62,971 nt of DNA from an uncultured Nitrospirota bacterium (GTDB lineage Bacteria > Nitrospirota > Thermodesulfovibrionia > Thermodesulfovibrionales > JdFR-85), in NCBI GenBank assembly GCA_964515925.1, contig CAZEYP010000007.1, positions 1 through 62,971 of the forward strand. The letters are read 5' to 3'. The notes beneath the pieces are model-generated. The model searched no databases. It saw only the letters and a program-made list of their open reading frames with translations, and was not told the origin of the DNA. Position numbers and translations under genes: made by a program. Shown here in pieces: positions 36,586-39,957 of this stretch (within the stretch, counting starts at the first letter, position 1; the number at the start of each line of letters is the position of its first letter).

Positions 36586-37416
36586 ATGTTACAGGGTGTA
36601 ATGCTCTTGTGGTTTTTACTTACTGCAGTTTCTGTGGTTTTTGTAGCAATAGATATTGTAAAAACACCTGAGTCTACAGTGCTTAAATGGGGATTTGTAT
36701 TGATTACTGCTTACATCGGTCCGGTTGGTGCATTCCTTTATGTGCTTGGTTGCAGAGAGCCACTTCCAGGTCTTCATAAACAATATACCTCACATAGATG
36801 GCGTCAGGTATTGGGCTCTACCATGCACTGCGTATCTGGTGATGGGTTGGGAATTCTTGTAGGTGCAGTTATTGGTGGGCTAATTCATTTTTCCAGACCA
36901 CTTGAGATAGGTCTTGAGTATCTTCTTGGGTTTGGTTTTGGATGGACCATCTTTCAGGCACTCTTTATGAAAGACACTGCTGGAGGCTCCTTTTTAAAGG
37001 CATTGAAGAAGACCTTTATTCCAGAACTTGTTTCAATGAATTATCTGATGGCTGCAATGGTGGTGGTAATGTCGTTTGGAATGAAGATGATTCCAGACAG
37101 TAATAACCCTTTGACCATGGGTTTTTGGTTTGTTATGTCAATGTCTTTATTAACCGGTTTTGTCTTTGCCTATCCGGTGAACTGGTGGCTGGTATCAAAC
37201 AATCTAAAACACGGAATGATGACAGTAAGACCTGCAGGAACGGCTCATAACATTGAGAAACAAGGTGGCAGTAATGCAAAACATGGCTTGGATATGAATA
37301 CTCATTCAACAGATATGCAGACGGCCAGGGTTTCTACCACCTCTTTGGTTTTAACGGTGGTTATGTCATTTATTGTTTTTGGCATTGGTATTGGAGTTGC
37401 ATTTGCATGGGGGTAG
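36586..37416 (+). CDS. DUF4396-domain membrane protein
   Basis: STMHCVSGDG.G and FAYPVNWWLV..NLKHGM. Confidence 0.85.
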   Translation: MLQGVMLLWFLLTAVSVVFVAIDIVKTPESTVLKWGFVLITAYIGPVGAFLYVLGCREPLPGLHKQYTSHRWRQVLGSTMHCVSGDGLGILVGAVIGGLIHFSRPLEIGLEYLLGFGFGWTIFQALFMKDTAGGSFLKALKKTFIPELVSMNYLMAAMVVVMSFGMKMIPDSNNPLTMGFWFVMSMSLLTGFVFAYPVNWWLVSNNLKHGMMTVRPAGTAHNIEKQGGSNAKHGLDMNTHSTDMQTARVSTTSLVLTVVMSFIVFGIGIGVAFAWG

Positions 37417-37453
37417 GATAAAAGTAAATTAAAATTATATAAAGAGGAGTCAA

Positions 37454-38647
37454 CTATAAAGAATTAACCTCCTTAACGAGGAATTTAGATTTATGAGAAA
37501 GCATAGCGAAAAGGGTTCTCAGGAGTTTATGAGCAGTGGCCAGGATGGCTTTTTTATAAGGCAGGCCGTCAGCTCTTCTTTTAAGGAAGTAAGACTTAAA
37601 AGTGTCATTGAATCTAACAACACTTGTGGTCATAAGATAAATGACTCTTCTGAGGTGACGATTACCTCGTTTAGATATTCTGCTTGTGCCTTGAAACTTA
37701 CCCGACTGATAGACAGAGGGGTCGATACCTGCATAGGCAATAAGGCTTTTATGGGAAGAGAAGTTTTCAATACTACCGATTTCAGCAAGGAAAGTGGCAC
37801 CTGTAGTGGAATCAATGCCATCAATGGAGGTAATGATTTCGAGTTCATCAATGGCAATGCTCTGGCATTGCTCTTTGAGGGCTCTGTCGAAGGTTTCGAG
37901 TCTTTTCATAAGGTGCAGAAGGGTGGAAATTTTCTCACTGAGGATGAGTTCTTTAGCAGGGCTTATGGAGGCGATAGAGTTTTTAGCGGCATGGATGAGC
38001 TTTGTAGGGGACACAGAGGCTCTTCTGCCTCTACCATTAAGACTGAAGGCCTCAGAGAGGGTTTCGGGATTAGAGACGGCAATAATGCGAGCAGAGGGGA
38101 ATTGCTGAAGGAACTGGAGCATGGTTTTAGTGAAGGGGTTACAGAGGCTGAGGAGTTCAGGGAAGGTAGTTTGAAGGAGTCTTTTGATTTCGTTTTTAGT
38201 AGAGGCGATAAGGGAGGCGATGGATTCTCTTTCTCTGGCAATATCTCTAAGGTCAGAGAGGTTCTGGGAGATATGGGTCTGGGAGATGGAGTCTTTATGG
38301 AGGAGGATAAAACGGGCAATGGTGAGGGAGTCTTTTTTGTCGGTTTTGGTTTTTCTGAGGGTGAGTTTAGCGAAGTTAAAGATTAGAAGGGGATTGATAA
38401 CGACGGTATTAAGGCCTTTGTTGGAGAGGAAGGAGAAGAGATTGATGTGGTAACAGCCTGTGGATTCCATGGCAATGAGTGCAGAGGGAGGGCTGCAGCA
38501 GTGGGAGGAAATGTGTTTAAGGAGGGTGGAGAAGCCCTCTTTGTCCATACTGGCAGAGAAAGAGAAGAGGGGCTGGCCTTTTGTGTCAATACCAGTAGCA
38601 GAGAAGGAATCCCTGGAGACATCGATACCGACGAAGAGACTATACAA
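37454..38647 (-). CDS. IS110-family transposase/recombinase
   Basis: GIDVS, MESTGCY, KTKTDKKD (DEDD) and AYAGIDPSVYQSG...ISKRGNRHLR; AAGGAGG before TTG. Confidence 0.95.
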   Translation of the reverse strand: MYSLFVGIDVSRDSFSATGIDTKGQPLFSFSASMDKEGFSTLLKHISSHCCSPPSALIAMESTGCYHINLFSFLSNKGLNTVVINPLLIFNFAKLTLRKTKTDKKDSLTIARFILLHKDSISQTHISQNLSDLRDIARERESIASLIASTKNEIKRLLQTTFPELLSLCNPFTKTMLQFLQQFPSARIIAVSNPETLSEAFSLNGRGRRASVSPTKLIHAAKNSIASISPAKELILSEKISTLLHLMKRLETFDRALKEQCQSIAIDELEIITSIDGIDSTTGATFLAEIGSIENFSSHKSLIAYAGIDPSVYQSGKFQGTSRISKRGNRHLRRVIYLMTTSVVRFNDTFKSYFLKRRADGLPYKKAILATAHKLLRTLFAMLSHKSKFLVKEVNSL

Positions 38648-38689
38648 TTTGGCACCTCCTTGAGGTATTCAATTGGTAAGGCAGGGGAA

Positions 38690-38816
38690 GCCTCCCGACC
38701 AATCCTCCATAGTGACGAGGGTTCATTGACCCAATCAACCTATGATGGTTATGGGAGGCAGGGAACAGACTCCTCTAAGGGTTCAAAGACCCAGGGAAAT
38801 TGGAGTTCTCCTGCCT
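38690..38816 (-). ncRNA. Candidate IS110 bridge RNA region
   Basis: Two nested stem-loops, each capped by GGGTCWWTGAACCC (38719-38732 and 38779-38792), upstream of the recombinase. Confidence 0.5.
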
Positions 38817-38889
38817 TTCCACCTTTGAGATATACAGGTAAAACCTGCTTTCTTTATAACAATAACACAAATTCATTGTAGGAGGAAAA

Positions 38890-39957
38890 ATGCCGAAAGA
38901 CCCCATATGTAATATGGAAGTAGATGAAAAGGATGCCCTTACAACGGAATGTGATGGACAGACCTACTATTTCTGCTCCGAAGGTTGCAGGGATAGGTTT
39001 CTTAAAGACAAGGCATGTAAACTTCCAAGAACCACCTACGACCTGATAATTATCGGTGGTGGTCCTGCAGGGCTTACTGCTGCAGTGTATGCCGCCACTT
39101 TGAAAATAGATGCATTCCTGATAGCAAAAGACCTGGGTGGACAGGCAATTGATAGCACCAAGATAGAAAACTACATGGGATACGATTTCATAACAGGCCC
39201 TGAATTGACAAAGCGTTTTCAGGACCAGTTGATACGCTCCCACTACATAGATCACCTTATGTCGCAGGTTGAAAAGATCGAGCCCTTTGAGGAGGGCTTC
39301 AGGGTGATTACATCAGAGTTGCGGAAATACACCGCAAAGGCACTGATTGTGGCAACCGGTATGACCAGAAGAAAATTGAAGATTCCTGGTGAGGAGGAGT
39401 TCCAACGAAGAGGTGTGTTTTATGGCAATATCCAGGACCTTGCCTTTGTTCAGGGTGAGGATGCAGTGGTTGTTGGTGGTGGCAACTCGGCAATGCAGAT
39501 AGTTGAAAATCTTCATACAGTGGCAAGGAATATCCACCTGGTTTCCGATTCCGAATTGAAGGCAGACCCTGTGATAATCGATAGGATAAAGAGATTCAAA
39601 AATCTCAGGATTTACGAGGGCTACAGAACCATTGAGTTTAAAGGCAACAGGACCCTGAGTGCTGTGGTCATTAAAAAGATGGCATCAGATGAAAAACTGG
39701 AATTACCTGCAAAGGGTGTGTTTGTGGCTATCGGGCTTCAACCGAATTCCTCGCTTGTTTCAGACCTGTGTGACCTGAATGAGCGGGGTGAGATAATTAT
39801 TAATCCCGACTGCTCAACATCTTATCCTGGAATCTTTGCTGCCGGTGATGTAACTAATGCCTTTGGAAAAAGAATCATCATAGCCTCTGGTGAAGGAGCT
39901 AAGGCTTCAATGGCAGCAAGACAGTATCTGCTTGATTTAAGAAAGAAAGAGAAGTAG
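38890..39957 (+). CDS. YHS domain fused to a thioredoxin-reductase-like flavoprotein lacking CxxC
   Basis: KDPICNM...YYFCSEGC; GGGPAG, GGGNSA and GIFAAGD; GVFYGNIQD where CxxC is expected. Confidence 0.85.
   Translation: MPKDPICNMEVDEKDALTTECDGQTYYFCSEGCRDRFLKDKACKLPRTTYDLIIIGGGPAGLTAAVYAATLKIDAFLIAKDLGGQAIDSTKIENYMGYDFITGPELTKRFQDQLIRSHYIDHLMSQVEKIEPFEEGFRVITSELRKYTAKALIVATGMTRRKLKIPGEEEFQRRGVFYGNIQDLAFVQGEDAVVVGGGNSAMQIVENLHTVARNIHLVSDSELKADPVIIDRIKRFKNLRIYEGYRTIEFKGNRTLSAVVIKKMASDEKLELPAKGVFVAIGLQPNSSLVSDLCDLNERGEIIINPDCSTSYPGIFAAGDVTNAFGKRIIIASGEGAKASMAARQYLLDLRKKEK

Follow-up and report, generated by a model that had tools for sequence, protein, structure and literature searches.

A bridge recombinase acting together with a bridge RNA has previously been described for the insertion sequence (IS) IS621 of E. 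coli (Durrant 2024, PMC11208160; Hiraizumi 2024, PMC11208158). In the IS621 layout the left guide follows the DNA top strand in sense, the right guide is the reverse complement of core plus right half, and the two bases next to it on the 3' side, the handshake, pair with positions 6-7 of the partner DNA (PMC11208158). For ISEc21 an RNA derived from the upstream non-coding region, the seekRNA, was found to be needed for circle formation as well as for targeting (Siddiquee 2024, PMC11187229). IS900 and IS901 insert orientation-specifically at host translation-initiation signals (Doran 1997, cited in PMC2942039; PMC8141618), and IS900 carries 'hed' (host-expression-dependent), an opposite-strand open reading frame (ORF) that runs the length of the element and has no clear start signals itself (PMC8141618). 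Here we compare with these systems an element located in a 62,971-nucleotide stretch (the window; contig CAZEYP010000007.1 of assembly GCA_964515925.1) from an uncultured Nitrospirota bacterium of the order Thermodesulfovibrionales. The region 37448-38882 is very probably (we put the probability at about 0.9) a complete IS of the IS110 group that would move by bridge-RNA-guided recombination in the manner of IS621. This assessment is drawn from the comparison of sequences and from the analogy with IS621. The element is composed and bordered as follows, LE and RE being its left and right end.

37448-38882, minus strand: IS110-family element, 1435 bp including one copy of the CT core (37449-37448)
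37454-38647, minus strand: recombinase gene, 397 aa, TTG start, catalytic residues D9, E61, D103, D106 and S315
38882, minus strand: start of LE, CCTACAATG
37448, minus strand: terminus of RE, TAGTTGACT
37448-37453, minus strand: TTGACT closing RE, comprising the left donor half and the core; would act as -35 box of the putative junction promoter
38883-38884, minus strand: left copy of the CT core at the target-LE junction, assigned from family junctions
38885-38891, minus strand: left target half (LT) ATTTTTC, matching the left target guide at 6 of 8 positions
37439-37447, minus strand: right target half (RT) CCTCTTTAT, positions 10-14 (CCTCT) fully complementary to the right target guide

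A first-pass annotation, made from the sequence of the window alone, had recognised an IS110 recombinase at this locus, and the protein comparisons bear this out. The gene product matches the NCBIfam model NF033542 'IS110 family RNA-guided transposase' with 234.6 bits (cut-off 140) and the Pfam families PF01548 (DEDD_Tnp_IS110, 1e-35) and PF02371 (Transposase_20, 4e-27). Its domain arrangement is that of IS110 proteins, with a DEDD RuvC-like domain at the N-terminus and, at the C-terminus, a Tnp domain bearing the catalytic serine. When aligned to the recombinase structures of IS621 (8WT6) and ISCro4 (9T56), the five residues listed above fall on the DEDD/Ser catalytic positions, all of those known from IS621 being kept. 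The TTG start codon aligns with the ATG of the homologues and is preceded, 7 nt upstream, by the Shine-Dalgarno (SD) sequence GGAGGTG (38659-38653).

The ends of the element were fixed by collecting empty sites and other copies, as the first-pass annotation had proposed. In a genome of the same genus (G014) the two flanks are adjacent and read ..ATTTTAC-CT-CCTATTTATATG.. (to the right of ATTTTAC-CT: CCTATTTAT..), whereas the occupied site of the window reads ..ATTTTTC-CT-[CCTAC...TTGA-CT]-CCTCTTTAT... Only CT is common to both sides in this comparison and no other target duplication was found. The contig of a related strain (run X5) also lacks the element; it skips 37411-38885 and contains a filler sequence identical to that of G014. 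The identical insertion is present in contigs from two studies, and both element junctions are spanned by contigs from another study. G016, a genome from another genus of the same family, contains at least four LE and three RE junctions of copies 93-95% identical to the window element, all situated at contig ends and all in agreement with the assigned ends. Altogether the ends are fixed by one empty site of a sister species and 11 further junctions.

In addition, 80 relatives were fetched with the recombinase protein (47-72% identity). Their LE begins with CCTAC without exception, and their RE always ends with TAGTTGAC(T/A), i.e. TTGAC(T/A), the flank diverging immediately beyond; apart from L033 and L050, which have TTGACA, the family keeps TTGACT at the tip of RE without change. 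Stand-alone contigs of relatives in public assemblies measure 1433-1440 bp, which fits the length of the element. From these junctions we assign the core to the CT of TTGA-CT; the first-pass annotation had left the core as well as the target loop unassigned, and both can now be named from the sequences. The non-coding part of LE comprises 235 nt (38882-38648), while RE extends only 6 nt past the stop codon. This layout, with an extended non-coding stretch ahead of the transposase gene and only a minimal RE, is that of the IS110 group, the IS1111 group showing the reverse, and the lack of terminal inverted repeats and of any target duplication beyond the shared core is likewise in line with the IS110 group.

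The left boundary had initially been placed at 38858. It has to be moved 24 nt farther out, to 38882 (38884 with the core copy). The 9-bp inverted repeat TATAAAGAA that had been pointed out does exist in the window:

38850-38858, minus strand: LE half of the inverted repeat, partner at 37455-37463

An exact repeat of at least 9 bp occurred in 43 of 2000 shuffles. The repeat is asymmetric; the G016 copies, 93-95% identical, retain only 7 bp of it, and the other relatives lack it. Being weak and unconserved, it was ruled out as a functional end of the element and is probably incidental.

The region between LE and the recombinase gene contains the elements of the putative bridge RNA. The left and right guides are abbreviated as LTG and RTG for the target and as LDG and RDG for the donor.

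38834-38849, minus strand: 5' stem-loop of the putative bridge RNA, AGCAGG-UUUUA-CCUGU, with compensatory changes in close relatives
38756-38816, minus strand: putative target-binding loop module (loop 1), made up of basal stem, LTG, hairpin and RTG strand
38801-38793, minus strand: LTG AAUUUCCC(U), followed by the loop 1 hairpin at 38792-38779
38778-38768, minus strand: UU-AGAGG-AG-UC, i.e. RTG, core-pairing AG and handshake UC
38691-38755, minus strand: putative donor-binding loop module (loop 2), made up of basal stem, LDG, hairpin, RDG and handshake
38740-38733, minus strand: LDG GGUUGAU(U), followed by the loop 2 hairpin at 38732-38719
38708-38705, minus strand: RDG GGAG, followed by the handshake GA at 38704-38703

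The two hairpins, capped by GGGTCTTTGAACCC (38792-38779) and GGGTCAATGAACCC (38732-38719) and 60 nt apart, and the outer stems AGGCAGG/CCTGCCT and CTCCC/GGGAG had already been noticed in the first-pass annotation and are present as described. A consensus fold of 61 homologous 130-nt regions with RNAalifold yielded two modules, each consisting of a basal stem, an internal loop and a distal hairpin. Double-sided compensatory changes were found for 11 of the 26 consensus pairs (e.g. G-C/A-U and U-A/C-G in both hairpins); they back both hairpins and both basal stems, and the guide strands remain unpaired.

The guides were assigned following the layout of IS621 (Hiraizumi 2024, PMC11208158). On the evidence of the sequences loop 1 binds the target and loop 2 the donor. 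The reverse complement of UU-AGAGG-AG-UC in loop 1 is GA-CT-CCTCTAA, which corresponds to donor positions 6-7, the core and the right target half. In loop 2 the LDG GGUUGAU(U) reads AGTTGAC(T) with a U.G wobble at the core C, the RDG GGAG is complementary to CT-CC, and the reverse complement of GGAG-GA is TC-CT-CC, i.e. target positions 6-7, the core and the first two bases of LE. The base preceding each hairpin behaves as a linker; LTG therefore spans positions 1-8.

The evidence that carries this assignment is the covariation of the loops with DNA at the ends of and outside the element. LTG was compared with the left flank in 55 distinct pairs and showed a mean identity of 5.91 out of 8, compared with 4.24 for shuffled pairs; for RTG and the right flank (46 pairs) the values were 4.48 out of 7 and 2.65, respectively. 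None of 10,000 shuffles reached the observed match, either for LTG or for RTG. The signal resides in positions 4-8 and 10-14. More than 10 different guide classes occur, each matching its own flanks, and exact matches were observed for L021 (TATCACC), L072 (AATTCTC), L051 (TGCAAC) and L074 (TAACTAC), the left guide of L021 agreeing with its flank at 8 of 8 positions. Between the window and G016 the differences in the RNA region are almost confined to LTG (AATTTCCC changed to ATTTGCCC) and RTG (TTAGAGG changed to TCTAAGG), and the right flanks differ as well, reading CCTTAG.. in two of the three G016 copies versus CCTCT.. in the window.

The donor side behaves in the same manner. In L033 and L050, where RE ends with TTGACA, the left junctions end with CA, and UG replaces AG in both RTG and RDG. 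LDG follows RE: GATGAT occurs together with ATGAC in L037 and L082, and GTTAAT together with GTTAAC in L086; 43 of the 51 elements parsed are free of non-wobble mismatches between LDG and RE. The first-pass annotation had called attention to the similarity of GTTGATT (38739-38733) to GTTGACT directly past the stop codon (37454-37448). This match is conserved and covaries in L037, L082 and L086, and we assign GTTGATT to the left donor guide. Target position 7 is complementary to the first handshake base of the donor loop in 53 of 60 cases, three of which are A:U switches; the exceptions comprise six A:A cases, all from one subclade. In the target loop the first handshake base, facing donor A7, is U in 48 of 51 cases, and the second handshake position is paired only in some. 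In its sequence the region combines features of a bridge RNA, namely two modules with complementarity in the target loop, the donor loop and the handshakes. Lack of covariation between the loops and donor or target sequences had been named beforehand as grounds for abandoning the two-loop bridge RNA reading; since the loops covary with donor ends and target flanks, this reading is left standing.

Two side observations concern the target loop. In L033 and L050, with their natural CA core, the base ahead of the target-loop hairpin remains U. In a genome with three copies, one of them (L029:1831-1964) differs from the others only by a G-to-C change, which breaks the first pair of the target-loop hairpin (CTCGGTC vs CTGGGTC).

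By analogy with IS621 the following course of transposition can be proposed. The element would be excised as a circle in which RE (...TAGTTGA-CT) abuts LE (CCTACAATG...). At the joint TTGACT of RE would come to lie 18 nt upstream of a sequence in LE resembling an extended -10 box, forming a junction promoter.

38859-38867, minus strand: extended -10 box TGT-TATTGT (family consensus TGnTATAA, from an alignment of 72 upstream regions)

This box is situated 18 nt inside LE, so that the joined ends would read TTGACT, 18 nt, TGT-TATTGT. A promoter scan of the integrated copy revealed no complete sigma-70-like promoter (0 sites). The -35 box of RE and the extended -10 box of LE would meet only in the excised circle. 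The transcript would start near 38852 and contain the 5' stem-loop, the target-binding loop, the donor-binding loop and the recombinase mRNA. In the donor loop GGUUGAU would pair with the bottom strand of AGTTGAC (U.G wobble at the core C) and GGAG with CT-CC of the top strand; in the target loop AAUUUCCC would pair with the bottom strand of the left target half and UUAGAGG-AG with CT-CCTCT of the top strand. Cleavage is expected after CT. Following strand exchange, the handshake UC of the target loop would pair with donor GA at positions 6-7, and GA of the donor loop with target TC at positions 6-7.

A further motif, AAGGAGG, lies close to RE at 37466-37472 (minus strand). It recurs 12-20 nt upstream of the RE TTGACT in many clades (most of L021-L100) and persists though the C-terminal protein sequences differ there; its complement resembles the target of the window clade. 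The motif could be a conserved nucleic-acid signal rather than the result of a coding constraint.

The target programmed in the guides of the window copy, AATTTCC-CT-CCTCTAA, is the reverse complement of an SD region, TTAGAGG-AG-GGAAATT. The element is inserted antisense to, and within the SD sequence of, the gene at 38890-39957 (plus strand), which encodes a YHS domain and a pyridine-nucleotide disulfide oxidoreductase domain; it lies 8 nt upstream of the host ATG. Read on the plus strand, LT represents the spacer between the SD sequence and the ATG of this gene, and RT the 5' portion of the original SD sequence (AAAGAGG). An SD-like sequence is regenerated at both junctions, and GGAGG is restored ahead of the host ATG because LE begins with CCT, like the right target half. 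In the window clade, i.e. the window copy, the four G016 sites, L021-L027 and L098, an ATG lies 7-13 nt beyond the core and starts an opposite-strand ORF in 10 of 12 insertions, in comparison to 2 of 54 in the other clades. The guide of L021 spells the consensus AAAGGAGGTGAT. By its sequence, the guide of the window clade is programmed for SD sequences.

We also considered that the whole family targets CCTCCT. This proved to be wrong, as the CCTCC of most clades is composed of the end of LT (..CCT) and the LE start CCTAC; only the window clade targets SD sequences. Most other clades carry guides for short palindromes such as ACTAC-TTC-CT-GTAGT, which is hairpin-like and resembles repetitive extragenic palindromic (REP) elements or terminators. 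Guides of this type were seen in L028, L029, L062-L067, L100 and others, with several copies per genome at such sites.

Several points weigh against bridge-RNA-guided movement as proposed here. The evidence for the RNA, the circle and transposition consists of comparisons between contig sequences together with the likeness to IS621, and the similarity of the recombinase to those of IS621 and ISCro4 is distant (E 1e-14 to 2e-18; about 1e-14 for IS621). Among the sequencing runs listed, none of RNA contained the locus. The shuffles used for the match between guide and flank ignore sequence relatedness. The occupied site mismatches LTG at positions 2 and 6. A search of Rfam with 3.5 kb (evalue mode) returned only chance snoRNA-like matches and no bridge-RNA family, and no consistent pairing register was found between the distal part of RDG and LE positions 12-14. 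Finally, the element is present as a single copy in its own genome (G000; 2.3 Mb, 72 contigs), where at least five sites TTTTCCTCCTCT with the same 12-mer as the occupied site lie unoccupied on several contigs.

These last observations lead to the alternative that deserves most attention, namely that the architecture has been read correctly while the copy in the window is a fixed and immobile passenger, for example since the junction promoter is rarely formed or a perfect target is lacking. Apart from the single copy, it is favoured by the result that the own genome holds no perfect 12-nt target and that sites with a single mismatch are no commoner than those of a reversed-pattern control. The same insertion occurs in runs from two studies, and an antisense frame that is open in relatives (see below) has gained a stop codon in the window copy. 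Against this stand the intact recombinase ORF with its catalytic residues, both guides and both ends. Moreover, the orthologous site is empty in a species of the same genus, and therefore the insertion is evolutionarily recent, and near-identical copies are present in multiple copies in another genus. Weighing both sides we consider an immobile passenger unlikely, although it remains the strongest of the competing explanations. As to the earlier description of the system as intact and potentially programmable, intactness holds at the level of the sequence, whereas programmability follows only by homology to IS621.

A second alternative is a core, and with it both ends, shifted by 3 nt, the crossover falling on the second CT of CTCCT, which would make the element 37445-38878, with LE beginning with ACAATG and RE ending with GACTCCT. 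CTCCT is indeed present at both junctions in the window, and therefore the crossover cannot be placed from the window copy alone; in addition the alignments of the G016 junctions reach 37445 and 38885. The ambiguity is resolved by the family junctions: in more than 40 relatives with other targets the flanks diverge right after TTGACT and right before CCTAC, and the registers of RTG, RDG and the handshake fit the TTGA-CT core only. The shifted core was ruled out on these junctions and we regard it as highly improbable. Equally improbable is that the structured upstream region is a cis-acting mRNA leader for translation or stability of the transposase transcript and its matches to the ends are due to chance: the single-sequence fold is only modestly better than that of shuffles (z = -2.3), no Rfam family was matched and no terminator separates the region from the ORF, but beyond the stems it is the unpaired loop strands that covary with DNA outside the RNA (flanks and RE), and the change of the core from CT to CA is mirrored in two separate loops.

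Returning to the bridge-RNA-guided element, the clade which targets SD sequences has another peculiarity, an antisense frame running through the whole element. In the window copy it falls into two pieces:

37493-38386, plus strand: first piece of the antisense frame, 297 aa, ATG at the conserved MRKHS; ended by TAG at 38387-38389, which is the sense leucine codon CTA
38390-38881, plus strand: second piece, open through the bridge-RNA region; ended by TAG at 38879-38881

The terminal TAG overlaps the regenerated host SD sequence GGAGG (38881-38885), 8 nt before the ATG at 38890. In all six complete close relatives (L021, L022, L024, L025, L027 and L098) the codon-aligned frame stays free of stops for 427-476 codons (in L021: 1770-3161, minus strand). 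It extends from just inside RE through the recombinase gene and the bridge-RNA region to TAG or TAG TAG in the LE tip; in the window copy it is interrupted by the one TAG at 38387-38389. About 65 other family members have at most 224 open codons each in this frame. The sense codons TTA, CTA and TCA are used 0-2 times per gene in the clade, compared with a mean of 11.1 elsewhere, other A-ending codons being normal. The hosts are of low to moderate GC (0.41-0.54), and therefore the open frame is not attributable to base composition. Synonymous-site identity amounts to 0.43-0.52 in the SD-targeting clade as against 0.31-0.37 at equal protein identity, a stronger T/C bias at third positions explaining part of it.

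A database search with the antisense product gave 48 clusters at 90% identity, 36 of them full-length (413-464 aa), all unnamed and down to 39-41% identity. At the loci fetched, the next host gene begins 0-11 nt past the stop codon of the antisense frame. The product matched no Pfam family, and an AlphaFold2 prediction from a 37-sequence alignment showed a mean predicted local distance difference test (pLDDT) score of 25 and no secondary structure. The conserved property seems to be the openness of the frame rather than a fold. Read-in from the host SD sequence at the RE junction was considered and rejected: the second codon of the frame is TAA, and the ATA frame of the window closes after 3 codons. 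We further observed at 38835-38847 (plus strand), within the antisense frame and facing the host gene, the complement of the 5' stem-loop followed by CTTTCTTTAT, which looks like a weak terminator; its score is not above shuffle expectation.

A tentative and somewhat doubtful explanation is that the clade has evolved a 'stealth' device, a stop-free antisense frame of about 460 codons that is translated by read-through from the host. Through translational coupling the ribosomes would then reach the host gene, so that Rho-type polarity would be avoided and insertion into operons would cost less. Selection would act on translatability, not on a folded protein, and the device would be tied to the programming of the bridge RNA. 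The logic would be the same as that of 'hed' of IS900, in an unrelated low-GC lineage, the device being broken by one stop codon in the window copy.

On the other side of the element lies a gene for a DUF4396 protein (36586-37416, plus strand). In the empty site of the sister species it is only about 30 nt away from the oxidoreductase gene, and therefore the insertion probably splits an operon.

How does the element compare with the systems described so far? As in IS621, the RNA encoded by the upstream non-coding LE would carry a stem-loop at its 5' end and then two modules with internal loops, the one for the target preceding the one for the donor (PMC11208160, PMC11208158, PDB 8WT6). Common to both are left guides in the sense of the top strand, right guides complementary to that strand, a CT core, a handshake dinucleotide on the 3' side of every right guide, and the DEDD and Ser catalytic set. 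The -35 box in RE and the -10 box in LE, combined into a promoter only at the circle junction, would be a further likeness, here predicted from the sequence. Differences from IS621, besides the distance between the proteins, are that the window LTG covers positions 1-8 with the pre-hairpin base as a linker, that the effective guide positions appear to be 4-8 and 10-14, that an SD region is targeted where IS621 targets a REP element, and that the window clade possesses the whole-element antisense ORF. ISEc21 is similar by its description, with a promoter at the abutted ends and neither terminal inverted repeats nor target duplication, and differs in its target, a conserved segment of IS3 transposases (PMC11187229).

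With IS900, IS901 and IS902 the window clade shares the oriented insertion at translation-initiation signals; their ORF across the whole element on the opposite strand has a counterpart in the six complete close relatives of the window copy. The hosts are different: low-to-moderate-GC Nitrospirota and relatives here, GC-rich mycobacteria for the IS900 group. IS900 is described as inserting between the SD sequence and the ATG, whereas the crossover in the window lies inside the SD sequence; and the antisense frame of the window copy carries a stop codon. Oriented targeting of translation-initiation signals is already known from IS900 and IS901; the present comparison adds how a bridge RNA encodes it.

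The element adds one more natural and fully decoded example to the bridge-RNA systems described in 2024. Comparison of about 60 relatives singles out the guide positions in natural use (4-8 and 10-14), which aids the choice and reprogramming of orthologues, and for reprogramming the natural switch of the core from CT to CA, compensated in both loops, is useful as well. For the strain itself, the separation of the DUF4396 and oxidoreductase genes may affect the expression of these genes. If the proposed role of the antisense frame were true, the clade would represent a tidy case of a mobile element minimising its own polarity. For the family, the guides of the window clade offer a base-by-base explanation of why some IS110 elements would home to ribosome-binding sites in one orientation.

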